From: Nemertoderma westbladi
Lineage: Eukaryota; Animalia; Xenacoelomorpha
Length of the DNA: 64,000 nt
NCBI GenBank assembly: GCA_032718475.1
Contig: JAUCBJ010001154.1
Location: 66,857-130,856, forward strand
Reading direction: 5' to 3'
Within the stretch, counting starts at the first letter, position 1; the number at the start of each line of letters is the position of its first letter. Under the pieces are notes generated by a model that made no database searches, had not been told where the DNA came from, and was given only the letters and a program-made list of their open reading frames with translations. This document shows, one piece after another, positions 5,271 to 39,915 of this stretch. Both the position numbers and the translations under genes were made by a program.

Positions 5271-6797
5271 CTACGTTTCAACTAAGTTCCATTGCATAAG
5301 CACTGCATCAGGGCCGCCTACGGTAATGAGCTTGGAACCCCGAAGGAAACGAACATTAGTAACGTTCCCGCTGGTGAGTTTAGTTTCGAAGAACTGAGCG
5401 CGCCGACTGGCGCACGGGTAGCGGTAGATCCGTAGGTATCCCTGCGTGTCCCCAACCGTTAGCACGTCCCGCTGCGGCTCGGCCCTATCGCAGCAGTTCA
5501 CGTCGACGCCCAGCTGCAGTCCGGGCCATATCCCCGCGACGTGGTAGCCCAGTATGCAGGTGTGCGAGGCCCAATCAACGTCACGTGACTCTACCCCCCT
5601 CGCGATCTGTCGCAACTGCGCGGCGTCCCAGTAGTAAATCCTGTAGTCCCCGGTCACAGTCTGCATGTAGGAGTTGTTACCAGACCAGTCGATGTGCGTT
5701 ACAAACGTGCTATGTCCGGTCAGCTGTCCGCTTTTACGGTACGACGACCCGGCATCCTGCACCTCGAACAAATAAACATTGCAGTCGTGGCTGCTCGCAG
5801 CTAAAGCTCGCCCATCAGGACGGAAGGAAAGGCAGTCCAGTTGCTCTATTCCGATCTGGTAGCTTGCCATGTGGATGCCAGAGACGGCGTTGAGAACGAT
5901 AATTCGTCCCACGGTCGTTCCCAAAGCAATGCTTTTACCTTGTGGATGAAATGACGCTGTTAGACACGGCTTCTCCACCATTGCTTTCCAGATAGGTTTG
6001 CGTGAGTCGAAATCCCACAAGATAGCCTGCAGATCATACCCGGCCGTCATAAACTTGGCCTCTGTGGGATGCACGCACAAAGCCCACACATCCTGCGTGT
6101 GTCCTTGCACCGTGTATCGAAACTTTGTTTGCATAGATCCCTCTAGAATGGCGTTATGAGTCGTCCCGATGTATATTGAACCATCGAGACCGCCGTCTCG
6201 ACCCGCCACGATCGTTCGAATCCCTCCGGCGGTCTCCGGCAATGTCCGACCCGACATGGCGCTGGTGAAACCACCCGTGGAGTCCCACGCTATAATCCGC
6301 CTGTCGTAACCGCCCCCCGATAGCAGGGTGCCGTCGTCCAACACACATAGAGAGTATAGAGCCTGCTCGTGAGCGTGTTGGATGCGGTGTTTAACTCGGT
6401 AGGCGTTGATGTTATCGCAGGACCACACTGTAATAGATCCTGACGAGTCCCCCGTTATTAAACTCTCGTCTGCGGTGAACGCTATGCTCGTTATGTAATC
6501 GGGAACATCTGTCCCGAATATGCCGCTCTTTTTATCTCGTAAAAGTTTGCCATCGAGGAGTTTCCAGAAGTATAAATGTTGTTTCCCTGCAGTAATTATT
6601 GTTCTCTCGTCGTACGGCTGGAAAGCCCCAAGAACCACCGTCTCTGGGTGAGTTTTCGACCGCGCTAACAATCGTTCTTCGTCCCAACTCCATAGTAACA
6701 ATGAGTGGTCGCCCTCCCCATCAATAGCTAGTAGCCAATCACCGCGGTTGGATTGTTTCGAGAACATTGCTACTGCGACATCTCCTGTAAACATGTC
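5271..6797 (-). CDS. DCX-EMAP/EML-like gene, coding exon 3 (WD40 beta-propellers of the TAPE domain, stop codon)
   Basis: EML-type WD40 motifs (GHTQDVWAL, GHSTFVTHIDWS, VNCCDR, LRIYRYPC, LITVGG). Acceptor ttttatccgcAG at 6798; phase 0 matches exon 2. Confidence 0.92.
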   Translation of the reverse strand, partial: DMFTGDVAVAMFSKQSNRGDWLLAIDGEGDHSLLLWSWDEERLLARSKTHPETVVLGAFQPYDERTIITAGKQHLYFWKLLDGKLLRDKKSGIFGTDVPDYITSIAFTADESLITGDSSGSITVWSCDNINAYRVKHRIQHAHEQALYSLCVLDDGTLLSGGGYDRRIIAWDSTGGFTSAMSGRTLPETAGGIRTIVAGRDGGLDGSIYIGTTHNAILEGSMQTKFRYTVQGHTQDVWALCVHPTEAKFMTAGYDLQAILWDFDSRKPIWKAMVEKPCLTASFHPQGKSIALGTTVGRIIVLNAVSGIHMASYQIGIEQLDCLSFRPDGRALAASSHDCNVYLFEVQDAGSSYRKSGQLTGHSTFVTHIDWSGNNSYMQTVTGDYRIYYWDAAQLRQIARGVESRDVDWASHTCILGYHVAGIWPGLQLGVDVNCCDRAEPQRDVLTVGDTQGYLRIYRYPCASRRAQFFETKLTSGNVTNVRFLRGSKLITVGGPDAVLMQWNLVET

Positions 6798-7014
6798 CTG
6801 CGGATAAAAGAACAATTATTTTAAACAATTAAACTACCATTTTAATATACCCACCCACCTTTACACTGTATTGTATTTCAATTTCTTGTCTTCTTTCCGA
6901 TTGATCTTTTGCATATTTTTTTAATTAGTCAAATTTCAATATTATTCTTATCTATTGTATAATATAATTGTATAATAAGTTGTATCCACACTTATTTCAT
7001 TTAGGCCATAAAAT

Positions 7015-7119
7015 AGTTGTGGGGCGAGCCACGAAGTTGGCGGAGCCTTAGCGAATTGACACTGTTAGAGGGTGGGTCAATTTATGCAAATAGTTGTCGT
7101 CGTCGTCGTCGTCGTCGTT

Positions 7120-7158
<39 letters not shown>

Positions 7159-8035
7159 GTCGTCGTTACGATTTTGACATGCTAATAACTTTGTCGGATT
7201 TAAAGCTGCCAAGTTGAAAATTTGTAGGTATCAATATGAGCAAAAGTTGAGATTTTTGAGAGACTTTCAGACACCATCAGTGCAATGGTCTCCCGCTAGA
7301 GGGCCACATGTCTAAACATTAAATGCCCTCCCATTTCTTTGCTTTTAATCCGTTTAAGCTGAAACTTGGCAGATATGTATTAGACCATTAGCTGTGACTT
7401 TCAAAGGAGGCGAATCCATCTGCAGTTCTCCAGTCTGCCGCTAGAGGGCCAAATGTCTGAAAGTGAAATCGTTGTCGTCGTTATGATATTGACATGCTTA
7501 TAACTTTGTCGAATTTAAAGCTGCCAAGTTGAAAATTTGTTTTGTTGAAAATCAGTTCAACAGTCACCCGCTATAGGACTACTTTATGCCTGAAAGTGAA
7601 TAGATTCTCCCGTCTCATTGATTTTAATCAGTTTAAGCTGAATCTTGCCATATATTCTGGACCACATGCTGCGTCTTTGTGGGGGGGGGGGGGGGGGGGG
7701 GGGAGAGATTTAATCGGTCTGCCGCTATACGACGAAATTTCTGAAAGTGAGATCCGTCTCTCATTTCGTTATCCGTTATTCAAGATGAAACTTGGCCGAT
7801 GTACGTATGTACTATTCATCCATAGGCTGTGTCTTTGTGGGGCTGGAGACCCTAATCCATCTTCAGTTCTCACTATACCGCTAGAGTCAGAAATGTCTGA
7901 ATAGAAATGAAAGAGGTAAAAAGTGATTAGGCGAAATCTGCTTAAAATTTGCTAATACAGTAATACTTTCGAATTAGTACTTAAATTAAATTTAAGTCAC
8001 GTGCTGCGCGAAGGCCCCACTTCGTGTAACTTATA
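7015..8035. mobile_element. Non-autonomous interspersed repeat with (CGT)n tract and internal CCGCTAGAGGGC subrepeats (Helentron/DINE-like, unassigned)
   Basis: Starts TGTGGGGCGAGCCACGAAG and ends GTGCTGCGCGAAGGCCCCAC. Related sequence at 15410-15905, 48910-49258 and ~52485. Microsatellite at 7094-7166. Confidence 0.55.
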
Positions 8036-8943
8036 CAGGTAAATCAAATCTTTCAGTTTGCCTCTACCAACCATACATCATTCATTACTTTACCGGGACT
8101 TTTCTATTGTTAATGTTATCTTATTTTTAATAAGATTATTAGTTATTAAAAGAATTACACGCACAAATGTAACAAACTTTATTGCTCGCGAACTCTGTCA
8201 TCTATATTACCGGTAATTCAAATTTGAAAGAGATTTTCACTAAATTAATGTCAAAATTACTAAAAATAATCACTCACACTAAATAATTTATTAATCATTA
8301 AAAAACATTGTAAATCCACTAAAATTAATGATTTATCACTAAAGACAATCATTTATTCACTAAATATAATCATTATTATTTATTAAATAAAATATTTACA
8401 ATCACTACATCATCACACCAAATACCATCATATTGTTAGGCCCGCTACTTGAATTGTCTTGGTTGTTTCATTGTGTCACGATAAGTTCCTTGGGGTAGTA
8501 CGACCTGCCGCTCAGGTTCCACCGCGATATGTCACCAGGGGCGAAAGGTTCCTGCTGAAGTATTAGATTCCTTAGAAGAAAGGATCACGTTTGTAGAGGA
8601 GCAGGATACAGAGGCAGCGATAGGGGAACCAAACCAATAAACGAAAGTTAACGTGCAGGTTAGTAAAGAGTTACAATTAGGAAAAGATTTAACTAGGTTT
8701 AAAAAGGTTAAAAAAAAAAGGTTTAACTTTAAAGGGTAGAAATTACGTCCGTTAGGTTCTGCAGCGTTAGTTCCTTCGATTTTCAGGGAAAGGAACAGAT
8801 TACAGTGACATGTTATTCTAACAAAACAATAAATGAAAGTCATTAAATCGTTTTCTAGAATTCAGTTGTAAATCAGTTGTAAATAAAAATACAACATGCT
8901 ACAAAATATTTATAATACAAATACACGCAGGACCTAATGGGAG

Positions 8944-9542
8944 CAGAGATGGGGGCCGGTTTTTCACGACCCGGGCCCGTGCCCGTTAATTTTAATTTTC
9001 TAAAAATTACAGCATAAAATAAAATTTTAACTTTTATGATCAATTTGTATACACTGATTCAAATTACAATATCACTTTGTCATCGTGAGCCACTGATCTG
9101 GTAGTTTGTGGATTAGACGATACACACGTTGTGTAGGTCTGCCATGTTTACATTTACTGTATGTTTGTTGTTTAAAATGAAATAATGTGCGTGCCTCATC
9201 GTTTTAGTTTCGATTACTAACTACTATCAGTCTGTGTCAGACAGTATCTCAATTTCGATTCAATTGTTTATTTATAACAAAATTAAACAAAAACGCAACA
9301 AAAATAAAACAGTAACAAAGTTAAACAAAGACAAAAATAAATGATAAAACAACCCTAGTTATAATAAAATAAAATATACATGATAAAAAAATACATCATT
9401 TTGTGATAAAAAAAAGTGTAACAAAAATTTTCATATTTTTGTGTTTTGTTAACTGGATAATATAATTATTCAACAATAGCGGGCTTTCCAATAATTAGAA
9501 TGTGGCCCAAACCCGGCCTGGCCCGGCCCGTGTCCATCTCTG
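8944..9542. mobile_element. hAT-like MITE in EML intron 2
   Basis: TIR CAGAGATGG...CCATCTCTG, GGCCCG subterminal repeats, 8-bp TSD AATGGGAG/AATGGGAA. Confidence 0.7.
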
Positions 9543-10031
9543 AATGGGAATGACCAAAGGACCCAATGACGTGACCATTTAAAGCTGCAGTGGGACCTAA
9601 TGCGAAATGGAAGGTGATTATTTTTAGAGAAAAATGATTAAAATTTGTGGAATGTGAATAAATTTAGTGGAAAGTAATTAACTTTTAAATTAATTTAAGT
9701 GCAATATCATTATATTTAGTGGATAAATAATTAATATTGGAGCAATCTGGTCTCAGGGAGATGATAATGTTACAGTAACACGCTATTCTAACCAAAACAA
9801 TAAAATAAATTCAATAGCACAGGTTATAGTATATTTTTAAATCAGTAGTAATTTGTAATCAGCTGTTATTTGCGTCGATATTCCCCTGTAGAGGGATGAA
9901 ATTTGAATGTATCAGGTGCGCCCCTTAGCGGCCCCCTACAGTAGTTGATGTACACACAACGGGGTATTGCTCGCTACAATTTCAGCCCTGTTGGATATTA
10001 TTTCAATAATTAATTAATTAATTATATTTAC

Positions 10032-10479
10032 CATTCCCAATATTACGAGTGTCGATAGAGTAGCACTGCTCCATATGCGTATCGGCGCCACGTTGGGATT
10101 CCCCGATAGACTCGCTTGTTGCCCAGTAACCACAGTCTCCTGGTCTGGATGGACGTCTAGACAGGAAATATCCTCTGTGTGGCCGAAGTAGTGTCTCTGT
10201 TTGTCCAGATCCTGGTTGTATATCACGGCTACGGTACCCACGTGGTACACAATCTCAGAGGAACCCAAAGTGTGTAAGTTATTCCGGGTATCGTAACCAC
10301 GGTAACCGTATACCCAATCGAGAACCGGCTTGCGATCGGGCGGGAGGCCTTTCTCTTCCCATTGGGAAAGTTTGTCAGTTGAGGGAACGTAGAAGGACCT
10401 CTCCATCCCGTGAATGTTCACTGTTATCGTTTCTTCTAGATCATCAGCTGTGTCATCTCTATCAACCATTGCGTCGTAA
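10032..10479 (-). CDS. DCX-EMAP/EML-like gene, coding exon 2 (HELP motif + first WD40)
   Basis: PDRKPVLDWVYGYRGYDTRNNL is the HELP motif; QRHYFGHTEDISCLDVHP. AG at 10480-10481, GT at 10031; phases fit both neighbours. Confidence 0.92.
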
Positions 10480-10932
10480 CTATTATTGCGAAAACAAGAA
10501 ATTTAGTAAATTTAGGAACTTTATTATTTTAGACAATAAATATTTAAGTTTATTTTGTGGTAATTCGTAGGATCGTACAATACTGTATATTCCACATTCG
10601 ATAATAAAACGTAACGGAAAACACTCTTTTCCACTCATTTTCTTTAGCGAAATTCACAGATATTCCGCCCTAGTGTATTGAGTTTTTGTTGAGTTTGGTA
10701 TTCTAGTAAACTCCTGTAAAACTCAAGCGCTCGAACAGAATAGTTGAATTTGGCTAATCTGAAAATGAGTGAAAAAATCGGTGTACTCCGCTTACTTTTT
10801 ATAAGTTTAGTCCATTCCGTTCCGATGGCCTTAATCTTTCTCTCCAATGGTCCACATATATTTTACTCATATATATCTGCACTCAGTTTACCAATTCGGT
10901 TGTTGAACTGATATATCACTAACTGCACTCAC

Positions 10933-12818
10933 CTTACTAACGCATCCTGCGATATTGTACTCATCTCCCTTGAAGAGGATCCAAACAACTTCTGCCTTTC
11001 CGTGGCCCCGTCCGTGGTGGAAGCTTGGTACCCCGCTCCTCCGGTGTCTGTCTGCACTGTATCCGGTTTCCGGGACAACGAGTAGCTACCGCCGTATCCG
11101 TTGCGATGCTGGTCTTTATTTCGAGCGCTCCGCCCTTGATAATAATTAGACACTGGTTTGTCCACAGGGATCTCGTTTTGTATATGTGTTACATCTCGCA
11201 GCGCTTCGTGGCCACAACAAATGAATTTATCATTTTTCGCGCTGTCGCTTAGTAGTTGAGAGACGCTGGTGATCCTCCCGCCCGTCTGCATCGAGTACAG
11301 CCTACGAATCGGGGGGCTAGCCATGTGAATTGTAGAGCCCATCGAGTTTAGTATTTGTTCAAAAGTTTGTTTAGTTTTCGGGTGTATTAACACTCTGCCT
11401 TGACTTTGTCTGTGGGTGTTACTTACGACATTTATATACCGCGGCTTTGAAGTGTGAAACACAGGTTTCGGTGATCCATTGCCATCTTGCGACGATGATA
11501 ATGAATTAGAATGATCGCTTATCTCACGTCCTTTGTAAAGTAACGTGTCCGTCTGTCGTCTGCCCCCTCCCGGCTGGAGATTGACCCAATGATTCTCTTT
11601 GGAATCTCCATAGCGACAACCAATCACAAAGCTCCCGCTCGCACAAACGTATGATTTCTCGTGTTGTAGTTCTATGACCTCGTTCACTGGCTCTCCGTTC
11701 ATTTTGTATAGGTACCTCACCCCGCAAGGCAAAGATATCTTTTCACTTAGATAAACTAAAAGTGTCTCTAGAATTGGGAATTTTTTAAGGGAAATCGCCG
11801 TGGAGTAGCCGCGGAACTGAGAGTCCCCGTTGCGATAGAAATGGCACATATTGGCGCGATGGTGCACTATAAGTGGTAGACGCCTTTGTCTTACCTCGAA
11901 ATTCCTCGGTAGAGGAATTTCGACGTCCAAATCTCCGCTGTTTGGGCTTTCCAGCTCAACATCCTGTCGATTCAAATGTTTTTTCGTGTTCCTGTTTTCG
12001 CCTCTTTGAAGCCTGGGGATTTGGCTCCGAGAACGATCTCTTTGTGAGCGATTTGTTTGGTCAATAATGCTCCTCTTATTATCAAGTTCACCGTCGTAAA
12101 CAATAACTGGTATATTGTTTGCATCATTCATTGCTGTCCTCGACACATTGCGATTATGTGCGGGTTTCCTTGGTGATAGAACTTTCGCAGGGCTCCTGCG
12201 TATCGCGTAACTATCCCCCGCGATATCATCGGGTATTTCCTTGCGACCGAGTAGCGCCTGCGCGCGATACACTGCCGATTGTCGGGCCGGCAGATCCTCG
12301 ATATTTAGGTTGGTTCCCGACTTGGGCCGATCGCTTCGCAGCCCCGAACGCTCGCTGACGGCAGACCCGTACCGCGAACGCGGCCGGTCCCCTTGCGAGC
12401 CGATCACGTGGAGCGTCGAGGGATTTTGATCCCTGGGGACGGTGACCGAGATGGGGATCCTCACATCTTCGTTGTCGTCGACACCACGCGAACCATCGAC
12501 GAAATCCCACAGAGCTTCAACGTTAATATCAACGTCCTTTTGAGTGATGTCCTCTACAACGTTGATAACGTCATGTTTATTGGTCCTCGCTTCCAACAGC
12601 TGTCTGCCCTCAATATTGTAGTAATCGTTACCGATATTAATAGTTATTGTTTTCAAACCGCTGGTCCGTTCCTCTTGTAACGAATGTATCATGTATCCAG
12701 GAAGGCTAATATGGACAGGAATTGTTGTTGCATGGTTATCGGTGATCACTCTACTATCTTTATCTTGAGAGAACCGCTGATCACCCACATATACATCAAC
12801 ATTGTCTGTCTGACTCAT
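10933..12818 (-). CDS. DCX-EMAP/EML-like gene, coding exon 1 (low-complexity N-terminus + two doublecortin domains); joined CDS 3861 nt, 1286 aa
   Basis: DCX1: FYRNGDSQFRG...LPCGVRYLYKMNG...YVCAS. DCX2: KPRYINVV...TFEQIL...IRRLYSMQTG...FICCGHE. Donor GTGAGT at 10932; phase 2 fits exon 2. Confidence 0.87.
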
Positions 12819-13099
12819 CTTAACATTAACTAGAATACTTCACTGTATTAATATTATTATACTACTACTGTTTTTAAATGAATAGTTAGAGGAAAAGTGA
12901 GAATGGAAACGACTACAGTAATTTTATAAAGTGCTTTACTCCACTAATAATCGAAACCTCAGTGCAAGATATAATAGCACTAAACTAATAAAACTTAAAA
13001 ACGTTTTGATATTTACTTTATATCATCTTATATCGAAACGGTAGGATATGACATTTTGAATTGGTTATGTTATTGCCGTTGTGATATAATTTGTTCTGA

Positions 13100-15917: not shown

Positions 15918-16307
15918 TACGCTACTACTACTACTACTCTACTAGGTCGAGCGAACTCGGACAGTGGAAATGAGATCCTTCCAGGCTTCCCGATTCTCCA
16001 TAAGTTGTCGCAATTTCGTTTTTCCCAAGTTCAGTATCCCTTTCAAGTTGATCTATATATGTTATGGCCGGTCGTCCACGACTACGCTTTCCATGAGTTG
16101 GTTGCCAGAAAAGTAGATCTGGTATGACCTCGTCTTTACTTCGCCAGCAGTGCCCACTGAATCTTAATCTGCGTTCACGGAGGGTGGTTGATACAGGTGG
16201 TATTGTACCATAAAGCGCGGCGTTTGTGGGGCGAGACACGTAGTCGGCGAGCCTTTGCATACGGTTCATATAGGGCAAATGGGGCATGTCCGTCTGTCTG
16301 TCCGTCT

Positions 16308-16340
<33 letters not shown>

Positions 16341-17115
16341 GTAAATGTTTGAACGCGAATTTCTCGGCATCGCTCGTTCGGAATTGAACCAAACTTAGTA
16401 GGTAAGTAGTAGAGAGAAAGTTTAGAAATTTTGTAAAGTTTGGTGAAAAATCATGCAGTCTGACGTCAGCTACGACAGATTATGTGGTTTTTAGAAAATG
16501 TTAAATTTCTCGGGAAGGCCTCATTTTCCTGAGCTGAAATTTTGATGGCCTGTAGAGAATCATGAAGTCTATCTTTTACGAAATTGAAAAGTTAAGACAT
16601 TTAATTGGGGATCCGCTAGAGACTCAGAAGTAATGACATAGGCCTACCGGTACGGTACTGCTGTACAGTGGTGCACTGGTAAGTACGAAATTGCAGAATA
16701 ACAATTTGACACCACCTAGCGGATTAACATATGATTGTATATCGAATGAATACATTTATAGCATGGGATATGGGGTCCAAACTAGACATGCCCCATTTGC
16801 TCTATATGAACCGTATGCCAAGGCTTGCCGACTACGTGCTGCGCGAAGTCCCCACGAACGTGTCATGTGTTGTCTCCAGCTGATATTTAGGGCTGCCCTT
16901 AGTAGTCTTGTGTAGTCCATCTATTCGTTGTTCAAGTGATTTAGTCAGTGTCCAGGTATAAGAATACAAAGAACTTAGTCTTCAGGTACCTGCAGAGATC
17001 TGATTTCCAGATGGTATCCATTTTTGATAGAGCTACCCAAGCCTTTGCTTTCCTAACTTCTATGTCCTTTTTGCTACTCTCTATCCATGATCCTAGGTAC
17101 TGGAAGTCGGTAGTA
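15918..17115 (-). mobile_element. RTE-type LINE 3' fragment (second family) interrupted by a ~640-bp insertion
   Basis: DFQYLGSWI...KAWVAL..M..IWKS and YTRLLRAALNISW (16860-17115) continue as LYGTIPPVS...RRLRFSGHCWR...GRP (15934-16215). (TAG)n tail near 15920-15942. Confidence 0.8.
16222..16860. mobile_element. Non-autonomous element with long subterminal inverted repeats and GTCY microsatellite (DINE-1/Helentron-like)
   Basis: CACGTAGTCGGCGAGCCTTTGCATACGGTTCATATAGGGCAAATGGGGCATGTC (~16237-16290) is inverted at ~16784-16838. It splits the RTE ORF. Confidence 0.65.
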
Positions 17116-17917: not shown

Positions 17918-19593
17918 ATCTTATAAAATGTTATTGTTATTATTACTTTTATACAGTACATCAATAATAATTGTCTCCTAGCTTCCCAATATTGGTTTCC
18001 AGTGTTCACTGTTCAGCCCTTCGGTGGTTACTGGTTAGACCTCCCGAAGTTGAATGAAACCATTTACTTCCGGCAGACACCCGCAGACTTCCCGATATTG
18101 TCTCAACGTCAATAATACAAGTGAGTTATTTTATAAGTCTACTGTATACAATATTTACTAAATTGAGTTTCTTGTATTTGTTTTATTCTGATGTAATACT
18201 GAGTTATAAATTATCTCAAATACAATTTTAATACAGTAATAGTACCAGTAGGCCTACAATAAAAAATATGGTAAAATTATATTTTGAGAATTTATTGTCA
18301 TTTTTTAAATTAAAATGTGTTATTTTAAAATGGCCATGGAAAATCTCTAAAAGTTTTAAATTAATAAATTAAAAAAATATTTTTGAAACAAAAAAATATA
18401 CGAAAACAGAGAAAATTATGATTTTTTAAATTTTCGAGACACTTTGAGGAGAAATTGTTCTATGTAGCCTTTATATTAAAATCTCCACATTATCTTTTGT
18501 TGGATATTAACCTCCGTCCCAACCATAGTATACTGCAATTATACAACTTTAAGGTCGTCTTATGTAGTTTGCCACTATAACTTAATGGCAATCTCAGTTA
18601 AACACTAACTAAGCCGACCGGTTTGGTACTAATGGGTGTAGGTAGATAAACAAATAGGATCGAGGCATTTAGTTACGTGTACAGCTATCGATTTAGATTC
18701 TTAGTTAATATAAATATTACAAAATAGTAAAACAGCCACTAAATAGTAATATAAACACAGTTTGTGTATTCTAACACGATACTTTATAGCACTTGAGCAA
18801 TTAATAGACTTTCATTATCATTTTATAGCCCACACCCATAACTATAATGGTATCTAAGCAACGAAGCCAAATACGCGATTGGCCTTTTAAGTATGATGGA
18901 TATTTGGCACTTACTACACGGAACTGTTAGTAATACCTCGCCTCCTCCCATTACAGTATCATATTGTACCCTAAGTGGGTGGTGAGGAGGAGGAGGGGGG
19001 GGGGGGGGGATTTATAAAAGGAAAACAGTCGATGCCCATGACGAATATTGACGCGTGGTTGATAACTGAAGTTTTTAATTGTGTCGACAAAGTCGACGTG
19101 TAGTGCAGTGGTGAATAGGTCTGTAATAGTGAGCGGGTTTGTTGGAGATATTGCTTTTGTAGGTTTACTTTTAATGCATTGCTCTGTGAGGGAACCTGAA
19201 TTTTGAACCTGAAATCCTCCTCTTACGTTATTTATATGGACATACAAAATGCTTTTGATACTGTTAACCACGTTTAATAATATTTCGTCCATTGTAATCT
19301 CCGCAGCCCATTAAAAATTACGAATAAAAGTTAAAGATTACGAATCGGTAACAATTTACATCATTCATAATTCAATGCGGGATTACCCAGGGATACTAAA
19401 CCTAAACATAGGTCTAGGTCTAATCATTTTATTATTATTTGTGATTATTTTAATAAGGGTTATTTGAGGTGGTCGTTTATTACAGAGAAGCGAGTAACTT
19501 ATGCGAGTAAATAGTGTCATCAAATCATTGATAAGCTCATTTATTGGAGTTGCGAATAATGTCCGCTTGGTGGCGTTTATTACTCAAGTTTCC

Positions 19594-19842
19594 AGATAGG
19601 GGGGTGGGGGACTGGACGCAATTAAAATTAATCCCTCTCCAGGGCCAGGGGAAATTGGACGCAAATAACAGCTGATTACTCTCAAAAATAAAACTGTAAC
19701 CTGTTATATTGTGTTTTGTTTATTGTTTTGGTTAAAATAACGTGGCACTGTAACCTGCTCCTTTCCCTAAATTGAGAATTGAACATTGAGGCAGGATATT
19801 CATTCGCCAAGATGGGATTTGCGTCCAGTCTCCCCCTATCTC
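19594..19842. mobile_element. ~240-bp MITE family (TIR GGGG-ACTGGACGCAA)
   Basis: GACTGGACGCAA...TTGCGTCCAGTC. Second copy at 22576-22815; fragments at 9750-9880, 38850-39160 and elsewhere. Confidence 0.75.
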
Positions 19843-19879
19843 AAATGTTGTTTGGAAGTCACATAGAATTCATCGGAAT

Positions 19880-20395
19880 CTTAGGTCCGATTATTTAGAG
19901 CAGCAGTAGTTCCCGTACTCCTCTATGGGAGTCCATTCTGGGCTCTAACTGCTGAGGACACAAAATCTCTGGATGGCACATTCACAAGAATGCTACGCCG
20001 GGTTCATTGTGTCAAGTACAATGCACACATCTCCAACCAGACACTATATAACATTGGAGGTGTCTCATTGGTTCCCCCAAGCTCGACACTAGAACAAAGC
20101 CGCCTCCGCTTTGCAGGACATTGCTTTCGCCGTGAGGACCAGCCAGTGCATAATTTTGTGCTTTGGTGGCCTCATGGAGTGAATAAGCATGGTGGACAGC
20201 ATATGACTTTCTTGAGACGCATCTTAAAGGACACTGGCCTTGAAGATGCGAATGATCTAGCAAATGTCATTGGTGATAGGGAGTTGTGGCGGCGCAATTT
20301 ATTCGACAAGCCGGCACAGTATTATTAATATATATGTAATGTATATATATAATGGAGCTGCAATGCAGCATGCCGATCCTAGTAGTAGTAGTAGA
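19880..20395 (+). mobile_element. RTE-type LINE 3' end with (TAG)n tail
   Basis: RLFRAAVVPVLLYGS..WAL...DGTFTRMLRR...RLRFAGHC; same family as 4440-4850. Confidence 0.8.
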
Positions 20396-20798
20396 GTAAA
20401 TGTTTCGTACCTGTCACCATACCCGAACTGGTGCACTGCACATGTACCTTTATCAAAAGCGATAATAGCTAATCCAAGTGTCTAAATAAACTCATCCAAG
20501 GTGAATTCAGGAGGTTAAACAGTACTACATTATATCTCTCTCAATGATTTTAATTATTGATAGTAACAATGTGTTGGCAAGCTGTATTTTTCGAGGTGTT
20601 TGTTATTATACATTTATTATAGGAAGGGATCTAGGGGTCTTTACCTCGAATGATAAGTTTATTTTACCGAAAATAACTTATCTTTTATTGGCGCAATTGT
20701 AGGACTAATCCCATCACATGCGTACTTTTTAACCGGGTAGTGTACAAATTTAAGAATCGCGTAATTTTTCTTGAAATTAATATCTCATATCTCTCCAA

Positions 20799-20841
20799 AC
20801 CACGTACGCGTTTCGACCTTACTGGGTCTCATCAGCGTGGT
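20799..20841 (-). ncRNA. Minimal type I hammerhead ribozyme
   Basis: Minus strand ACCACG-CUGAUGA-GACC-CAGUAA-GGUC-GAAA-CGCG-UA-CGUGGU: intact core, stems I and II, palindromic stem III. Confidence 0.9.
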
Positions 20842-21211
20842 GTCGGATTCGAACCTGGGACCTCGAGGTGGAAGCCGAGACTACAACCACTAGGCCACAG
20901 GTTCTTGAGATATGGAGTATTAATTTCAAAGCCAGCTGCCATTTTATTAGCCCCTGAGTTTTTTGATTATTGATAGTAACAATGTGTTGGCAAGCTGTAT
21001 TTTTCGAGGTGTTTGTTATTATACATTTATTATAGGAAGGGATCTAGGGGTCTTTACCTCGAATGATAAGTTTATTTTACCGAAAATAACTTATCTTTTA
21101 TTGGCGCAATTGTAGGACTAATCCCATCACATGCGTACTTTTTAACCGGGTAGTGTACAAATTTAAGAATCGCGTAATTTTTCTTGAAATTAATATATCA
21201 TATCTCTCCAA

Positions 21212-21254
21212 ACCATGTACGCGTTTCGACCTTACTGGGTCTCATCAGCGTGGT
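21212..21254 (-). ncRNA. Minimal type I hammerhead ribozyme (one stem I mismatch)
   Basis: Same motif 413 bp away; the 3' arm of stem I reads CAUGGU instead of CGUGGU. Confidence 0.82.
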
Positions 21255-21321
21255 GTCGGATTCGAACTCTCGAATATCTCTCTCAATGATTTTAATACGA
21301 TGTTAAGATTTGATGATAAAT

Positions 21322-21652
21322 TGGGGAGGTGGGAGAGGAAGGGGCATGTGTGACAAGGAATAAAGACGGGGGAGGTGGGAGAGGAAGGGGCGTGTGTGAC
21401 AAGGAATAAAGACGGGGGAGGTGGGAGAGGAAGGGGCGTGTGTGACAAGGAATAAAGACGGGGGAGGTGGGAGAGGAAGGGGCGTGTTTGACAAGAAATA
21501 AAGACGGGGGGGGGGGGGGGGGGGTGGGAGAGGAAGGGGCGTGTGTGACAAGGAATAAAGACGGGGGGTGGGAGAGGAAGGGGCGTGTGTGACAAGGAAT
21601 AAAGACAGGGGAGGTGGGAGTGGAAGGGGTGTGTGTGACAAGGAATAAAGAC
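21322..21652. repeat. G-rich 46-bp minisatellite, ~7 copies
   Basis: Unit GGGGAGGTGGGAGAGGAAGGGGCGTGTGTGACAAGGAATAAAGACG. Confidence 0.92.
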
Positions 21653-22575
21653 GCGATATTCTAGGATGCATTACGATGATGCTGATATGTAGAAGTATTT
21701 GATTTGATTTTTAGCAATAATTGGTACTTTTTTATTATGATTTTGCGATTAAAACAATGTTTTTTTTGGTGTAGTCATGGTAACTACTGTAGTTGTTAAC
21801 TAACTAGTTATCTATTTATTTATTTTATGTACGTTTTTGAGACTCTCTTAATTAAATAAAAGGAATTTAGTATCTTAAATTCAATAATGGTGGTTATGAT
21901 TTTCATGATGTGTCGTTTTGTTTCGCGATTTTATCTATTGTAAGCGTTTCCTTCCTGATATGTTCTACCGATATTTGAAACTTGAATTGTGTTGAGATTT
22001 CATTTCAATAAAAACGAAAACCAAAGATATCGGAATCAATATGCGTCGACGGCTATCCAATACTTTGAGCTAGAACCTTAGCGTCTCAGTATAAATGTTG
22101 TACATTCCATATTTTTAGTCTGCAATGTTTATATTCACTATTCATACTCAGCTATGATTTATTTTATTTACTCGGAGGATAAAAAGAATCTCGGGTCGCA
22201 ACATACAATCCCGCCTTTATTTAAAAATAACCACAGAGGAATACATTATCTTAGTATTATTATATGGATGTTATGTTATATTATTAATATCTGGAAGTTT
22301 GGAGTGGAGATTGTACTCTGACACGCTACTAGTTCGACATCTCGACACCCCTGACCAAATTGTTTACTACATTTTTTTTATTTGAAGTGGAAATACTAGC
22401 CAGTATTGATGTCAGTTCAATCTCAGTAATTTCAGGTAGCTGGTGTTTTTCCTAGCTAGAAAATATATAATTGTGTAGTAAAAAATTTTATTAAAATTTA
22501 ATATAAGAACAACATGATATAACCTACATCCTTGTAATTTTAATTGGTTTACACACTTTAGTGATTATGTATTGT

Positions 22576-22815
22576 GGGGGAAACTGGACGCAATAAAAAT
22601 TCATCCCTCTCCATGGGAAATTCGACGGAAATAACGGATGATTACTCTCAAAAATAAAACTGTAACTTGTTCTAATGTGTTTAGTTTATTGTTTTGGTTA
22701 AAATAACGTGCCACTGTAACCTGCTCCTTTCCCTAAATTGAGAATTTAACATTCAGGCGGGATATTAATTCGCCAAGGCGGGTTTTGCGTCCAGTTCCCC
22801 CCCCCCCCCCCCCCC
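22576..22815. mobile_element. MITE, same family as 19594-19842
   Basis: Same TIRs and internal sequence. Confidence 0.72.
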
Positions 22816-24066
22816 TGTCTCACGTAGCTAGTGTTTTTTTTATGACAGATAATAATCAGTAATATTTCATAAAACCAAAATAACTATTTACATCATTGTG
22901 TACAAAGTAGCACTTTGCAGCGTATGATCCGAGTTTATTTATGTACCGAGCGAGCGCAGCTAGGGAGGTTTACATAAATAAACAAGGGTCTTTAACGTTG
23001 AAAAGTGACCTTTGCACACAATGATGTATGTAATTTTGTTACATTATGTCAACTTATGGGATGCTCAATTAAACATTTTAATCATGTACTTATTTGGAAT
23101 ATAAGTGAAATTTATTTACATTTATATCTAATTAAAGTTTATTGTTGTTATCTCCTGTATGGATGTGATAAATCATTAATCCATCTTGAATATAGTCGAC
23201 TGAAGCAAACTTAGTCACCGTTTGTGTCCGTTCAGTTTTACTGAACACTGTCGCCATTTTCTTTACTCATTTTCTCTAAAGTGTCTTCTATTGGACGTTT
23301 GCCATAATGGATTACACTACATGTTAAACAATTATTTACATACAGTAGCTAGTCCCGTCACTACATACTGGATAGGACAATAAAGCAGCACGCATTAATA
23401 TAAATGGAAATAATACATTCTGGAATACGGTAATATGAAGTTGTTTCCAGGTCATTGATTACTTTGCAGCGTTCCGTCCTATACGCCGCAACGCTGCAAA
23501 GTGGTACCTTGCAGCGTTACGAGTAATTCATCAGAACGCTGATAAGTTGATAATGTAACAAAATATTATTTTATGACGAACAGTAGCTTCTTTTATATGG
23601 TACCGCACATTTCTAATGTTTTTTTATTGTTGTTAGCTTTTTTGGTTGTGTTGAAAATGAATTTAGCTAAATTGAAATGGAAAAAAATAGTTTAGAATAA
23701 GCAGAAAATGAAAATAAAATAAAAAAAATATTTTTTAATAATATTTTCTAAATAACTAGTCTTTTAAAAAATAGTACCTAGCTTGGACAATAGTATGTTG
23801 ATGGATTGTAGACCATATGTTCGAGAACATAAAATATATAAAAATCATGGAAACTTTAGTTAGTGGAAAACAATTTGATGGAGGTGTGTCTACATGACGA
23901 AGTAGTACCCATTGACACACACATATCAGGGGGTGTCTACATGACGAAGTAGTACCATTGGCACACACATATGAATGGGGCGGAGTGTTTTAGTAATTTA
24001 CATCATTAAAATTAAAATTAAAAACACATCATTATATTTTACTACTCTGTGTTTATTGTCCTAATA

Positions 24067-28444: not shown

Positions 28445-29300
28445 ATCCATGCGGAACTCATACTAAGAGATCCATGTGGAACTCATACTAAGGGATCCAT
28501 GTGGAACTCATATTAAGAGATCCATGTGGAACTCATACTAAGAGATCCATGTGGAACTCATACTAAGGGATCCATGTAGGACTCATTCTAAGAGATCCAT
28601 GTGGAACTCATACTAAGGGATCCATGTTGAACTCATACTAAGGGATCCATGTGGAACTCATACTAAGGGATCCATGTGGAACTCATACTAAGGGATCCAT
28701 GTGGAACTCATACAAAGGGATCCTTATGGAACTCATACTAAGGGATCCATGTTGAACTCATACTAAGGGATCCATGTGGAACTCATACTAAGGGATCCAT
28801 GTGGAACTCATACTAAGGGATCCATGTGGAACTCATACTAAGGGATCCTTATGGAACTCATACTAAGGGATCCATGTGGAACTCATACTAAGGGATCCAT
28901 GTTGAACTCATACTAAGGGATCCATGTGGAAGTCATACTAAGGGATCCGTGTGGAACTCATACTAAGGGATCCATGTTGAACTCATACTAAGGATCCATG
29001 TGGAACTCATACTAAGGGATCCTTATGGAACTCATACTAAGGGATCCATGTGGAACTCATACTAAGGGATCCATGTTGAACTCATACTAAGGGATCCATG
29101 TGGAACTCATACTAAGGGATCCTTATGGAACTCATACTAAGGGATCCATGTGGAACTCATACTAAGGGATCCATGTTGAACTCATAATAAGGGATCCATG
29201 TGGAAGTCATACTAAGGGATCCATGTGGAACTCATACTAAGGGATCCATGTGGGACTCATACTAAGGGATCCTTATGCAACTCATACTAAGGGATCCATG
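28445..29300. repeat. 25-bp minisatellite, ~34 copies
   Basis: Unit TCCATGTGGAACTCATACTAAGGGA. Confidence 0.95.
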
Positions 29301-29554
29301 TCATTACGGGTGTCACTACGGGCACCACTACGGGTGTCACTACGGCTACCTACTACGGGTACCGATTTCAGACTTTTGACAGACTACATGTGTACCATGA
29401 TTATTGATAGTAACAATGTGTTGGCAAGCTGTATTTTTCGAGGTGTTTGTTATTATACATTTATTATAAGAAGGGATCTAGACTATCAATAATCAAAAAT
29501 CAGGGGCTAATAAAATGGCAGCTGTCTTTGAAATTAATACTCCATATCTCAAGA

Positions 29555-29619
29555 ACCTGTGGCCTAGTGGTTGTAGTCTCGGCTTCCGCCTCGAGGTCCC
29601 AGGTTCGAATCCGACACCA
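29555..29619 (+). promoter_or_regulatory. tRNA(Gly-TCC)-like Pol III internal promoter (A and B boxes); not a functional tRNA
   Basis: A box TGGCCTAGTGG (29560-29570), anticodon-like loop CTTCCGC, B box GGTTCGAATCC (29602-29612). No acceptor stem pairing. Confidence 0.75.
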
Positions 29620-29658
29620 CGCTGATGAGACCCAGTAAGGTCGAAACGCGTACGTGGT
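29616..29658 (+). ncRNA. Minimal type I hammerhead ribozyme; predicted cleavage after GUA (A29652)
   Basis: ACCACG CTGATGA GACC CAGTAA GGTC GAAA CGCG TA CGTGGT. Confidence 0.9.
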
Positions 29659-31447
29659 TTGGAGAGATATGAGATATTAATTTCAAGAAAAAATTACGCG
29701 ATTCCTAAATTTGTACACTACCCGGTTAAAAAGTACGCATGTGATGGGATTAGTCCTACAATTGCGCACAAAAGATAAGTTATTTTCGGTAAACTAAACT
29801 TATCATTCGAGGTTAAGACCCCTAGATCCCTTCTTATAATAACATGTGTACCAAGTTCGGTTTATTTACGTGGACGGACTGACGGACAGACAGACTGATA
29901 GACCGCTCGACGAACAATGTTAGAAACATCGGACCCCGCATTCATAGATTACCACGGTATATAAGTCTTGGATGTGTCTATGATTGGCCCCTATAGGGAT
30001 CCATAAATGTTTTTTCTTTATGAAATAATGAAACTTTTTCCGAAATGTAAAAAAGTTACCTTTTTTTAATAATATGTACTAATAAATAACTTTGTATAAC
30101 TAACACACATTGGTATATTATAAATTATTTAAATATATTATACAACACAGTTGCTCTTAGTCATAAATACTGCAGCAAAATGATTATCATCTTATTATTA
30201 CTATGGTAACTATACTCTGAGCCAAAAGTAAACGTACTACTTATTAGCTCTGTTGATTAATTAAAGGAAAGGACCAGGTTACAGCGGCACGTTATTTTAA
30301 CCAAAACAATAATGGACGTGATACTACGTAAACTTTTGGCTCATAATAATATTGAATATAATATATACTGTAGTGTTAATTTAATATATTATGCACTAAT
30401 ATGCTTCGAGAATATAGTTTTACATTGTACAGTAGTTGTGTAACTTCGAAACAATTAGACAAAGCAATTAGTTGTTTTTGAACAATCTGCTAGCAGCAAC
30501 GTTTTTTTATAAATATCACTATACACATTTTAATAGCTGACATTATAATATTATATATGGGAAAAAACACTAAATTCAGATAGACAACCGCTTAGCTCGA
30601 CATTAAATAATAAATTGCACATACTATATCATACCAAGCTACTCTACAGAGATTGTCGAAGCCAACTTCATAAGAAAACAAATACGTAAACATTCATTAC
30701 CATTTAGTTTATCTGTCGTTTGTTTTTGATGGATGAAACACAAAATATGAAAAAATAACTATGTTTTTAGACCACTTTTATTAAAACTACCAACAACTGC
30801 ACCTACATCGCGACGACGACGATATGGTTGGTTTTATTAACAATCTTGTAACAATATGCAAATAGCATTTTACTGGGGGGTCGGGTAGCGCCCCCAAATA
30901 CAACTTTTCATTGTGACGTTTCCGCAGCCTAAAATTGAGTGAAAATTGAAGTTAGTGCTACCAAATATCGTCTGGGGAGTTTAGGAATGGCCAAACCAAT
31001 TTTTGTTGGGAGCCTTTTTGCTGGGCCTTATTCAAATGAAAATATCGTGCTGCTCGAAGGCTTGTCAAAAAACAGAATAGCTTTTACGTTTTAACCAATA
31101 ACTCTATAGTTTCAGAAATAGATATAGATAATAGATATGAGAAATATGCTTGCAGATTTGAAATCGGCATTACATTCGGCACAGGATAGGATCATATTCA
31201 AAAATACGGGGTCGCTACCCCCCCCCCCCCCCCCCCCCTTAATTAAAGATTTTTCACTTTACAAATAGAGTCATCACATCAACTTCTAATTTTGTATTGC
31301 GCAACTTGTTTACTTACCGTAAAATAAAATAATATTCGTATAATAACTGAACTACTGCACCTATTACATTACTTACACGTTGTAAGTAACAATCACTACT
31401 GCTTGTAATGTTGTTACTGTAGACTTACTGTATGAGTATACGTAGTA

Positions 31448-31911
31448 TCAATAGGCACAGGGTGTGTTGTGTTCCAGTTCGCCAGTCATCCAACCCAATT
31501 CTCCGTAAGTGTAACCGTGGTCTGGTCTCATTCCCGGCGCATTCATTCCCCCAGGGGGCCCCAGTCGAGGGCCTTCCCCTATGCTGATGGGCCCACCCGG
31601 TAGACACGGCACTGTTGAGAGGTTCGGGTGAAGGTAGGGGGGCGCGTTCTGATTGGCTAATAGTTGTGGAGGAAGTACAGGGGAAAATCCCAAGGGGAAA
31701 CAATTGGAGGGGGCGCTAGCCATTCGGTTGCAGAAGTACTGATCGGGGGAGGGGAATATTGCGTCCACTGGGACGGCGTTAGTGGTGGAAGGCGACACAT
31801 TGTGATGGCCAATAGTTGATACCGATAAGTCGGCGCTAGGAGGCGTACTACATTCGGATGGCGACATATTGTGTTGTAACTTGTTGCCATTATTGTTGTT
31901 TTCCATTGAAG
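31448..31911 (-). CDS. LHX3: LIM homeobox Lhx3/4, last exon (Pro-rich C-terminus)
   Basis: Acceptor tattttcAG at 31912; phase 1 fits the previous exon; open to the stop at 31448. Confidence 0.8.
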
Positions 31912-31975
31912 CTGAAAATAAAAAGAAAAAAAATGAATCATTCGTGGTACAAACCAGAATTATATTTTACAAGAG

Positions 31976-32110
31976 TAATGGTAAACTGTAATGGTAATGG
32001 TAAACTGTAATGGTAATGGTTAACTGTAATGCCGTAATGGTAATGGTAAACTGTAATGGTAATGGTAAACTATAATGGTAATGGTAAGCTGTAATGGTAA
32101 TGGTAAACTG
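31976..32110. repeat. 19-bp GGTAAT-rich intronic tandem repeat
   Basis: GGTAAACTGTAATGGTAAT x ~7. Confidence 0.85.
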
Positions 32111-32160
32111 TCTGCTTTCAATTTATACATTCAATGAGTTTATTTATATGATTTACTTAC

Positions 32161-32295
32161 AGTCAAACTCTCCGGAGAAACAACTCAACGGAGATGATGG
32201 CGGCGAATCCATATTGTCGAGAATATCGCTTCGGTTCATTATTCTAGAACGCTTAGATGGGCGGGAAATACCGTGGTGCGTAAATGAATTAGCGC
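32161..32295 (-). CDS. LHX3: Lhx3/4 internal exon after the homeodomain
   Basis: AG at 32296-32297, GTAAGT at 32160; 135 nt open frame ANSFTHHGISRP...GEFD; phase 1/1. Confidence 0.78.
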
Positions 32296-32412
32296 CTTAA
32301 ATAAATATTAATGTTTTGGTTGTATTTGTAGATATAGATGATATACGTAATATAATGAAAATAAAAAAACAATTACTTATTGATGGATTAAATGTAAATT
32401 GTAATTAATTTA

Positions 32413-32754
<342 letters not shown>

Positions 32755-32840
32755 TTAGTAAACTTATTGTTGCAAAGCATGGATTTATAATTCTAATAAA
32801 TCAATGATCCGTATGTATATGTAAGCAGCTGGTTTATTAC

Positions 32841-33043
32841 CTCTTTGCCTCGCCAATTCGTAGTCAGCTTTGCACATTAGTTTATTATCCTCCATTAGGT
32901 AGAACTCGTCCCCAGTTGCCAACTCGCGTCGACACAGCACGCACACGAAACAGTCGAGATGGTAGGTCTTATCCTGAGCCCGTCGGACTATCTCCGTAGA
33001 TGGGATCCCTTTATCGCAACCGGCGCAACGCGTACCAAACCGA
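32841..33043 (-). CDS. LHX3: Lhx3/4 LIM2 exon
   Basis: RFGTRCAGCDKGIPSTEIVRRAQDKTYHLDCFVCVLCRRELATGDEFYLMEDNKLMCKADYE; canonical AG/GT; absent from the ORF track. Confidence 0.95.
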
Positions 33044-35429
33044 CTAAATAAATTAACGATTTATAATGTTTAACGTTTGTTTGCACACCATCCACTCAAA
33101 AAGCGACAGATTTAACAAACAGTAATATATTTATTTCAAATTTACTTTAATCGTTATTCCAGTATTTCAGGAATAACTATTTGAATATTCCTACGAATAA
33201 ATTTATGGAAATGAAACCGAGGGATCTTATTTTCTTTAAAATGGCGATTTTCACCTTCAAATTTGTCTTAAACAAAAACAATAAAATAACGGATGTTCTA
33301 GTACCGCGATATAACATTGCTGTAACATCTGCTATCTGTATCATCAGTAACCGTTATTTATTTTCATTTATAGTATTTAGGGGGTCTGGTATTGTCAGAC
33401 ACACCACATATCCATCGTCTACAGGTACTACATGGGAGCCAAGTGTGAATGAATCCGGGATGCTTTACAAGTACTACGTTGCGGAGCGTTGGTCCACTGT
33501 GGGCGAGGGAAGGTGAAACAGTAATATTGTCTATTGTGGAATTTATAATAACGTTTTACATGAAAATTAAATAGCTTTATTTCCCGCATCATCCATTGAT
33601 ATATAATTATCCGGTTGACCGATATCGCTCGGCAAATTATAAATCTCGGGGATTTCGGGAAAAAATAATCATAATAATAGTGATTTCCATCTCATCATAA
33701 TTTAAATTGGAATTTAATTTATTTTTAAAGTTAGCAATCGTCGGGCAAAAATTAGGCAAATTGTCCTTGTGCATATCAGTTACCACGGGTTTCGTTATAG
33801 TTAAGTTGACCTTGTTCACTGCTCGACGAGGCGGGTTTGTCCTTGTGGAGGCGGCGTTCGATTAGGAGCGGTTACTATCGGAGTTATTGCTCCATTTGTC
33901 ATCTTTTAGTTGATTCGGACCAACACCTACTGCCCGAAACCCATTAACAGATTGTGCTACAAACCTGACCCACGCTCCGCGCTCTCGCGGCCTTTAATCA
34001 TGGCCAAGCGCATTTGTATATCGCGAGTCGGTCAATGATTGTATGGCGCTGGGCCAAGCGGATCAAGCGGGCCTTTAACATGGGGGCTATGTGTCGCGTG
34101 GCGAGGTTTACCTGAGAGAAAGTTGGCCTAATCCGTCGCGTGCGGTTTCACGGCCAAGCCATAATCAATCCCCACTGATGCCGGAATATTCTCAGGGTGA
34201 ATGGGGCGGGATCGCGCGCGAATCTAGGCGTTATGTTTTCATTGTGTATAATCATACAGAGGCCATAGTGCGTTAGCGGCATCTCTATCTCTACCCACCC
34301 GGCACAACTTAATGAGCTTTGGGAACCCAGCCTACACATTATACATCGAGTTAAGTTCGTAAAACTTTTCTAAACTTAATCTCTACAAGGACAAAAGACG
34401 GAGATTTACTCTAAGCTCTTTCCAGAATTTTCTTAATTCCCGAAGCATTGGTTATATAGGAACTGCGTTCGGCTTTATTTATTGTACGACCGGTTGTATT
34501 GCTTCACTCTCAAGACAGATTTGTGAGTTGGCTTTCAGGCAGGCTCAAAGTTTATTTCGATGCGTAGGTTTAAAGGCATCAATGGGAGGTTGAGTTTAGG
34601 CAAGCCAAGGTTGCCCTTGTCAGGATGTCACTGTGAGTAAATTGATTAGTTCGGTACCTTCGGAAGGTAATCCCTAAGCATAATTCGTGGTGGAGTTACT
34701 GGAGTTGGAGAGATTTATAGGAGACAAGGTTGGCATAATACTAACTCGACGCGTCCAGCTTTCCCTTAGGAATAAAAATGCTAAAGAAAATAAACACACC
34801 ACAAAGGCCAATTTTTGCCGAGTCAAGAGAAGAGACTACATCACATAGAGTCTTCCGTACTCTTCTCCACAATAAAAAAAAGTTAATAAAATCAATGTGA
34901 TCCACTAAACGCGAACTACATAATTACGATCTCCGCGATATCGTTTATTTATTGATGCTGTTTTGTTTACTTCAAATAAGTCATTTCATTGTAGGTCAAG
35001 TAACATGGTTTCAACAATGGTTTATTGAAATTAGTGTCTTTTGACTTACGGGTTTTTACTATTTGCAGAAAAGGCGCGAAATTTTCAAATTGAAATTTCA
35101 CCAAGTGACTTGCGGCTTTTGTCATCATATGGCTGTATCCTACGGAATTAAAGCAGAATTTAATGAGGATTTCAAATCTGAACATGACTTGGCGAGATCT
35201 GTTTCTATGCATTTTCATTAATCACCTGAAGAAGCCCTCCTGATGGGAGAAATCTAGTAATCTAACTGTTGTTACTAATTCCATTAGTCATCTGAGGTCA
35301 ACCCGCCCTACCTTAACTGTTTAGTATAATTCCTTCTTAAGTGCTTTAAGCGAAACGAGATCGCTTTTAGATTTCGAGTTATCACTGTTTCTCCATGTCC
35401 GCCGGTCTGACCGTCAACATGTAAGTTTA

Positions 35430-39808: not shown

Positions 39809-39915
39809 GTCGCAGCAGCGCAGACATTCGCTGTGCCAACATTTATCTAACACTTTGAGAATAAATCTATCCGCAATGGGCTGTACGCAACTGCAGCAGT
39901 TGGGTAGCTGACCTC
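39738..39915 (-). CDS. LHX3: Lhx3/4 LIM1 exon
   Basis: GQLPNCCSCVQPIADRFILKVLDKCWHSECLRCCDCNALLNDKCFVRSGKLFCRDDFF; acceptor ttattcacAG; phase 2 donor fits the LIM2 exon. Confidence 0.95.

Follow-up and report, generated by a model that had tools for sequence, protein, structure and literature searches.

A young animal mobile repeat that joins putative tRNA-type promoter boxes to a type I hammerhead ribozyme, and the footprints of its insertion

The 64-kb window (the whole stretch of DNA analysed here) contains two insertions of a real, young, many-copy, non-coding mobile repeat of an invertebrate animal, whose unit places tRNA-type A and B boxes immediately ahead of a type I hammerhead ribozyme (Table 1). 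The element extends a class known from Schistosoma rather than founding one, and its insertion footprints are unusually clear. The first-pass annotation of this DNA had described a 413-bp unit inserted as a tandem 1.7-mer between 23-bp target-site duplications, and these basic claims were confirmed. At insertion 1, 300 nt recur at 99% identity with a spacing of 413, the 719-nt insert amounts to 1.74 units in head-to-tail copies, and the two flanking 23-nt sequences are 100% identical. The two copies differ at 2 of 300 aligned positions, apart from 4 mismatches in the 6 junction bases at the 5' truncation, and all features of the element lie on the minus strand. The unit has a GC content of 39% and no coding capacity (3–11 stops in each of the six frames, longest ATG frame 36 codons). 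Neither insertion has an A-tail or a simple-repeat tail, and the layout does not show an LTR-internal arrangement.

Table 1. Positions of the element, its parts and its neighbours in the window (unit positions are numbered from the hammerhead cut site).
Feature	Position	Strand	Remarks
Insertion 1	20555..21273	-	1.74 copies of the 413-bp unit; 5'-truncated within first B box
Target-site duplication, insertion 1 3' end	20532..20554	.	23 bp, AT-rich, exact repeat
Target-site duplication, insertion 1 5' end	21274..21296	.	exact repeat
Junction bases at 5' truncation	21268..21273	-	6 bases, 4 mismatches to unit
Truncated B box of upstream copy	21258..21267	-	no A box upstream
Upstream type I hammerhead	21212..21254	-	G>A at 21216, in a CpG context; cut predicted after 21218
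Long-range stem, 5' arm	20907..20929	-	23-nt stem; upstream of presumed Pol III start
tRNA-like head	20845..20904	-	presumed start 20904, A box 20897-20887, B box 20855-20845
Downstream type I hammerhead	20799..20841	-	intact; predicted cut between 20805 and 20804
Long-range stem, 3' arm	20771..20793	-	would close head-plus-hammerhead domain
Hairpin with four-T run	20652..20682	-	T run 20673-20670, sole one of the unit's sense strand; possible leaky Pol III stop
A/C-rich zone	20551..20614	-	67% A+C; between main 3' end (~20553, position 252) and possible second start (20614-20608)
Target-site duplication, insertion 2 left	29386..29397	.	12 bp
Insertion 2, inverted piece	29398..29481	-	84 nt, unit positions 171-254; ends at the family's main 3' end
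Insertion 2, direct piece	29482..29841	+	unit position 241 via head and hammerhead to 190/191
Insertion 2, boxes and intact hammerhead	A box 29560-29570, B box 29602-29612, hammerhead 29616-29658	+	from pattern search
Target-site duplication, insertion 2 right	29842..29853	.	12 bp
EML gene	5271-12839	-	doublecortin domain, few long exons; best matches 46-48%, amphioxus and sea cucumber (among 6 proteins returned)
LIM-homeobox gene	31448-39940	-	two LIM exons, homeodomain
MFS transporter gene	56453-57754	-	single exon
Second tRNA-SINE family	38121-38380; 40712-40930	+	A/B boxes; ordinary-looking
APE-type LINE 3' stubs	4469-4852 (-), 15934-16479 (-), 19885-20395 (+), 53331-53574, 58319-58783 (+)
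MITE-like dispersed family	19585-19850, 22574-22821, 38820-39160		inverted ends; also shorter pieces

A third copy of the unit, absent from the first-pass annotation, was found at 29398–29841 (insertion 2). It consists of an inverted 84-nt piece placed head-to-head with a direct piece, a layout seen in one of the two insertions in the window. A single private variant recurs in the 21 nt that the two pieces have in common, which means that one template lies behind both of them. The two ends of this insertion are offset from each other by 57–63 nt.

The public contigs extended these observations from two loci to a large family. Contigs matching 20380–20967 numbered 3871, 1525, 1 and 88 in runs X1, X2, X4 and X5, respectively; X1, which reaches into the unique flank as well, may derive from the same sample as the window, and X2 and X5 come from other studies. 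The summed depth in X1 was 5–8 × 10^5 on the unit versus 36.9 on the flank, which speaks for very many copies and is not to be read as a copy number. The usual unit length in these contigs is apparently 411, compared with 413 at insertion 1. At least 55 contigs (20 from X1, 33 from X2 and 2 from X5, counted from 6 of the 18 groups of loose ends listed) join mixed flanks at 20552–20554, where flank agreement is 0.41–0.67, and insertions 1 and 2 have their main 3' end at unit position 252–254. A possible second start is indicated, among the groups listed, by a single group of 7 X2 contigs at 20608 (position 197), 6–7 nt from the second end of insertion 2. Summed contig depth, a coarse measure, is high upstream of the head (20900–20939); copies therefore do not generally begin at the presumed Pol III start. 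Both in the window and in X1 and X2 contigs (wrap joints and loose ends at 20962–20963) the unit passes directly into another copy of itself, and no ORF separates the two. The two tandem copies of insertion 1 share two minority alleles (20642/21055 and 20753/21166), at sites where the majority alleles hold 83–89% and 94–96% of the summed depth in X1 and X2. The anatomy, the two target-site duplications, the many flanks and the lack of a coding frame together agree with what had been proposed at first pass, a retrozyme-like and Sm-alpha-like element mobilised in trans.

Several contigs departed from the standard unit. Joints in X1 and X2 revealed internally deleted variants that skip 52–175 nt (e.g., from 20611 to 20696/20697), among which a deletion of 84–85 nt starting at 20611, beside the possible second start, had the greatest depth. 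One X5 contig on 20562–20686 (contig 19) has 8 of its 11 differences as A>G (plus strand) within 20605–20655 and a ninth A>G at 20642, relative to the majority allele. If X5 is RNA, the pattern resembles A-to-I hyper-editing of the antisense strand, and otherwise an odd old copy; X5 is guessed to be DNA, and its long contigs have very uneven depth. Another X5 contig on 20772–20880 (contig 23; 1831 nt, depth 401) ends in a decayed hammerhead copy with core changes, and the 1.7 kb beyond its hammerhead could be another repeat hosting the copy.

The hammerhead's stem I is 6 bp long and its stem II 4 bp, with a loop of 6 nt; the motif further has the conserved core, GAAA, a palindromic helix III region of 6 nt and a GUA site. 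Its reported presence in every copy was upheld for all three unit copies in the window, one of them with a stem I mismatch: the change at 21216 in the upstream copy disrupts stem I pair 2, adjacent to the cut site. A full descriptor, which required 5 or more pairs in the 6-bp stem I, the core, a stem II of 4 bp, GAAA and UH, matched three times in the window, always in this element, and never in 300 of 300 random replicas. The loose core pattern by itself was not significant, with 8 matches in the window versus 3.23 expected. Comparison with Rfam, suggested at first pass, gave HH9 as the best match (26.6 and 24.2 bits, E 3.5e-4 and 2.1e-3), under the gathering score of 52; no Rfam family passed its own gathering score anywhere in the 64-kb window. 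The earlier label of a minimal hammerhead had to be dropped. A helix I of 6 bp, a helix II of 4 bp and a palindromic helix III of 1–2 bp make a canonical type I motif by the definitions given in the available text of PMC4209133, where the min-HHRs of Penelope pLTRs are described as having a helix II of 7–8 bp, a short helix I and an extra base before stem II. Here helix II has 4 bp, helix I has 6 bp and the extra base is absent. Exact and near-exact hammerhead patterns gave no match in viral contigs and none in prokaryote genomes, collections that are poor in animal DNA.

Folding predictions bear on how such a motif would cut. The energy of the isolated hammerhead is ordinary (z -0.58), and closing helix III within one motif is predicted to cost ~5 kcal/mol (-6.7 vs -11.9). 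A double hammerhead formed by two motifs is predicted at -42.7, compared with -34.4 for a pair of monomers, and the dimer of the 21216 variant with an intact copy is predicted to be weaker (-37.1). Cutting is thus predicted for the dimer. An axolotl motif of the same shape is described in the part of PMC7229834 available as 6% cut alone and efficient as a dimer. By analogy with published systems, we consider cutting in vivo quite likely.

The tRNA-like head lies directly 5' of the downstream hammerhead; its A and B boxes are 31 nt apart and its B box ends 3 nt before stem I. With a consensus that we took to represent the two boxes, A+B box pairs were found three times in the window (two in this element, one in an unrelated SINE) versus 0.033 per replica, only 10 of 300 replicas having any. 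The start of Pol III transcription is presumed from tRNA numbering. Neither ARAGORN nor Rfam (at E ≤ 10) recognised the head as a tRNA, and its predicted fold is a rod rather than a cloverleaf. Its spacer showed a weak likeness to 133 mostly prokaryotic and phage tRNAs (score reached by 5 of 200 shuffles) and a resemblance to the spacer of the tRNA-SINE at 38121–38380 (score reached by 19 of 2000 shuffles). The unit's four-T run lies 132 nt past the cut and could halt Pol III before the second hammerhead. The idea that the sense strand is short of Pol III terminators was considered and discarded (one four-T run vs 1.40 expected, P = 0.57). By analogy with other box-bearing elements, Pol III transcription of the element is on balance probable.

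The promoter that had been claimed for the unit stands for the downstream copy; the upstream copy begins inside its B box and has no A box. This matters for the 413-nt monomer that had been expected to carry its own boxes. The predicted cut sites are indeed 413 nt apart and the boxes fall at the monomer's 3' end. The release of such a monomer from 20555–21273 fared less well, since the promoter there covers one hammerhead only; release would require outside read-through together with cutting by the damaged ribozyme. Because the promoter before the first hammerhead ends 50 nt short of the presumed start, insertion 1 cannot yield the monomer from its own promoter. Read-through could cover insertion 1 because it is located between the LIM-homeobox and EML genes, in their orientation. 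Neither insertion has an intact promoter ahead of two hammerheads: both are products, not sources.

A circle of the unit is predicted to fold to -101.8 kcal/mol, compared with -79.8 ± 5.3 kcal/mol for shuffled sequences (0 of 100 as low). The predicted stability comes largely from a 23-nt long-range stem, which scored 14 where 60 shuffles gave at most 11 (0 of 60 reached it). The antisense circle folds equally well (-106.3). When the upstream arm was included, the first pair of stem I had P ≥ 0.93 in all nine constructs and in the circle; when it was omitted, pairing was weakened in five of the nine, to P of 0.2–0.3 in two and 0.7–0.8 in three. The stem is thus predicted to exist only if the RNA includes sequence upstream of the Pol III start. 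It might, however, be no more than the relic of an inverted repeat.

Neither insert fits within one unit (713 and 427 templated nt, insertion 2 running from position 241 round to 254), and both cross the cut site and the presumed Pol III start. Since a cut linear monomer would give only 252 nt and a plain SINE transcript ~350, the template was a circle or an uncut multimer. The shared minority alleles are what either a single molecule copied twice round or a source array of homogeneous units would give. By analogy with retrozymes, we give a circular template about equal weight for and against. Similarly balanced is the proposal that the element spreads as an Sm-alpha-type retrozyme. In this scheme longer tandem loci would be transcribed by Pol III, a pair of hammerheads would release a monomer, and a host ligase would join its ends; a borrowed reverse transcriptase, probably of Penelope type, would then begin at one fixed internal site and travel round the circular template. 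We regard as doubtful, and put forward tentatively, the fullest version of this proposal, that the 411–413 nt circle is a self-expressing retroposon with its own Pol III promoter, a hammerhead that cuts only in pairs and is locked by a stem available to the circle or multimer alone, a docking site for a Penelope-type reverse transcriptase and rolling-circle copying. If true, this would amount to a selfish RNA of viroid size whose genomic life cycle is complete, and the Sm-alpha design would be a recurrent class across animal phyla, driven by Penelope enzymes.

An uncut linear multimer could also have served as the template, transcribed from tandem loci by Pol III read-through or by host Pol II and likely copied by a Penelope-type partner; the hammerhead would then be only a passenger or an RNA trimmer, and no circle would be needed. 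Such an RNA accounts equally for every DNA feature, including the more-than-unit inserts, the shared minority alleles and the long-range stem. Moreover, in the accessible parts of PMC11167929, unprocessed RNA serves as the main substrate for Penelope insertion in vitro and hammerhead mutants insert normally, and in those of bioRxiv 10.64898/2026.07.22.740005 eight of nine Xenopus retrozyme dimers were uncut and one was cut. Against these results, circles were seen for every retrozyme examined on Northern blots from coral, mussel and axolotl, according to the available sections of PMC7229834. The hammerhead core in X1 and X2 is also free of high-share variants, although the family is too young to reveal selection in this way. 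We judge the linear multimer rather unlikely. Returning to the circle, a cyclic 441-nt contig in X4 (411 plus a 30-nt overlap, depth 13.8) was rejected as evidence for it, the same wrap joint being found in X1 and X2; X4 carries another organism label, is only guessed to be RNA, and has two sister runs in its study with next to none of the unit's words.

The form of the inserts points to the enzyme that made them. As far as PMC3846280 and PMC8557442 could be consulted, the Penelope signature combines partial tandems and unequal 3' ends with a truncated copy inverted head-to-head, and the accessible text of PMC11167929 reports that the purified protein cuts AT-rich DNA, extends both DNA strands, and starts reverse transcription internally in an A/C-rich stem-loop, at two sites. 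The element has a fixed internal 3' end with no tail repeat and an inverted truncated copy. Two measures differ: the offset of 57–63 nt exceeds the Penelope tail of 30–40 nt, and the Penelope duplications of 8–10 bp given in the available text of PMC3846280 are shorter than the 23 bp at insertion 1. No remnant of a Penelope reverse transcriptase or GIY-YIG domain was present in 150 of the 156 open frames of at least 62 aa in the window (five at 62407–64000 left out). By analogy with the described Penelope footprint, a Penelope-type partner is likely.

Two other origins compete with a Penelope-type partner acting in trans. In one of them the element would be a tRNA-derived SINE bearing a hammerhead and moved by an APE-type LINE, with insertion 2 formed by twin priming, a LINE mechanism able to yield inverted inserts of this kind. 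The means are at hand: the window contains five LINE 3' stubs, which we take to be RTE-like and whose relatives have reverse transcriptase and AP-endonuclease (31 relatives with RT domains or fragments), as well as an ordinary tRNA-SINE. Duplications of 12–23 bp and 6 junction bases are ordinary LINE marks, and primer pairing of 6 of 7 bases was found at insertion 1 and possibly of 5 of 7 at the second end of insertion 2. However, primer pairing is absent from the main junction of that insertion, the inserts begin internally and extend into sequence upstream of the Pol III start, and the element lacks the (TAG)n tail of the window's LINEs, its 3' sequence showing no convincing likeness to theirs (12, 158, 12 and 71 of 300 shuffles reached the scores). 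Nor does it run from tRNA head to LINE-type tail as a LINE-mobilised tRNA SINE does. A search for a 3' tail shared with the window's second SINE also gave nothing convincing. We hold this origin to be quite unlikely, and consider it very unlikely that an autonomous Penelope-like element supplies the unit as its pLTR plus tail, here in truncated, partial tandems, the alternative that the first-pass annotation had itself raised. The usual end of a Penelope element, in the literature parts available, combines partial tandems with an inverted 5'-truncated copy and a type I hammerhead, and Xenopus retrozymes are related to pLTRs according to the portion of bioRxiv 10.64898/2026.07.22.740005 accessible. 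Yet no ORF with reverse transcriptase and GIY-YIG lies between the repeats in the window; the unit adjoins the next directly, with stops in all frames, whereas pLTRs include the ORF start as described in the available text of PMC11167929 and PMC3846280, and A/B boxes are not among the pLTR features that the accessible descriptions mention.

Schistosoma provides the nearest known design. The consulted part of PMC6765202 describes tandem units in which a hammerhead comes after a Pol III promoter, so that cutting leaves this promoter at the monomer's 3' end. Sm-alpha and Sj-alpha (PMC6765202, PMC2770079 and PMC8490949, each seen in part) have, like the element, tandem units with a tRNA-related promoter then a type I hammerhead, a very high copy number, and a promoter position such that only tandems propagate. 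The likeness is by description, with no sequence alignment behind it, and the two differ in unit length (335 bp in Sm-alpha vs 411–413 bp here) and in animal lineage. The Sm-alpha head is tRNA-Gln-like and still detected by tRNA scans, unlike the head of the element, and the available descriptions of Sm-alpha and Sj-alpha make no mention of a fixed internal start, inverted inserts or a long-range closing stem.

Animal non-LTR retrozymes, as described in the accessible text of PMC7229834, bioRxiv 10.64898/2026.07.22.740005 and PMC7761336, share with the element a non-coding tandem unit (150–450 bp, GC below 50%), a canonical type I hammerhead with a weak palindromic helix III, a stable predicted circle in which the ribozyme is free to fold, and duplications above 4 bp (23 and 12 bp here). 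Their circles have been demonstrated in coral, mussel and axolotl, whereas that of the element is putative; in this window it forms dispersed short inserts rather than the long arrays of retrozymes. The endonuclease-positive Penelope-like elements of PMC11167929, PMC3846280, PMC8557442 and PMC4209133, again as far as these were available, resemble it in their partial tandems, unequal 3' ends, head-to-head inverted 5'-truncated piece, A/C-rich internal start and AT-rich target. The element differs from them in having no ORF, a canonical hammerhead instead of a min-HHR, and Pol III-type boxes.

Ordinary tRNA-derived SINEs have A and B boxes, as in the copy at 38121–38380, and their boxes are 31 nt apart as in the element. 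The element is set apart from them by a head internal to the insert, the lack of a LINE-type tail and a hammerhead fused at the B box.

The suggestion of a possibly new family therefore has to be divided: the family appears undescribed in the literature searched, whereas its design is already known from the accessible account of Schistosoma (PMC6765202). No tRNA-promoter hammerhead element outside Schistosoma was found in that mostly open-access literature, and the supplements of PMC7229834 and the bioRxiv preprint may list the family. A pattern of B box plus hammerhead core occurred in at least 119 metagenome stretches and in 20 viral ones; among the 139 pattern-matching loci listed, none resembles the unit (blastn E ≤ 0.01). 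Four of these 139 have both stems and are like prokaryotic tRNA ends followed by long-helix-III hammerheads. The phage and metagenome loci L133, L085, L103 and L121, in which a tRNA-like 3' end is separated by at most 16 nt from a hammerhead-like core with a paired stem II, are unrelated to the element.

For animal retrozymes the questions are which polymerase transcribes them, which enzyme mobilises them and whether the circle is the template. In the parts available, PMC7761336 describes them as seemingly without promoters, in contrast to the A/B boxes of the element, and PMC7229834 and bioRxiv 10.64898/2026.07.22.740005 propose, and do not show, Penelope as their mobiliser. With this family, whose many copies are young and nearly identical and which has the promoter boxes, an intact hammerhead and a fixed start, each of these questions becomes testable from one genome assembly and one RNA sample.

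The neighbourhood of both insertions is rich in other repeats. At least four of the LINE stubs have (TAG)n tails, and one stub ends ~140 bp from insertion 1. A G-rich 46-bp minisatellite (21323–21653) starts 27 bp beyond the same insertion. The SINE copy at 40712–40930 is 5'-truncated and has an internal 63-nt duplication. Insertion 2 lies ~1.6 kb beyond the stop of the LIM-homeobox gene, and a 25-bp minisatellite array (28445–29301) ends ~85 bp before it.
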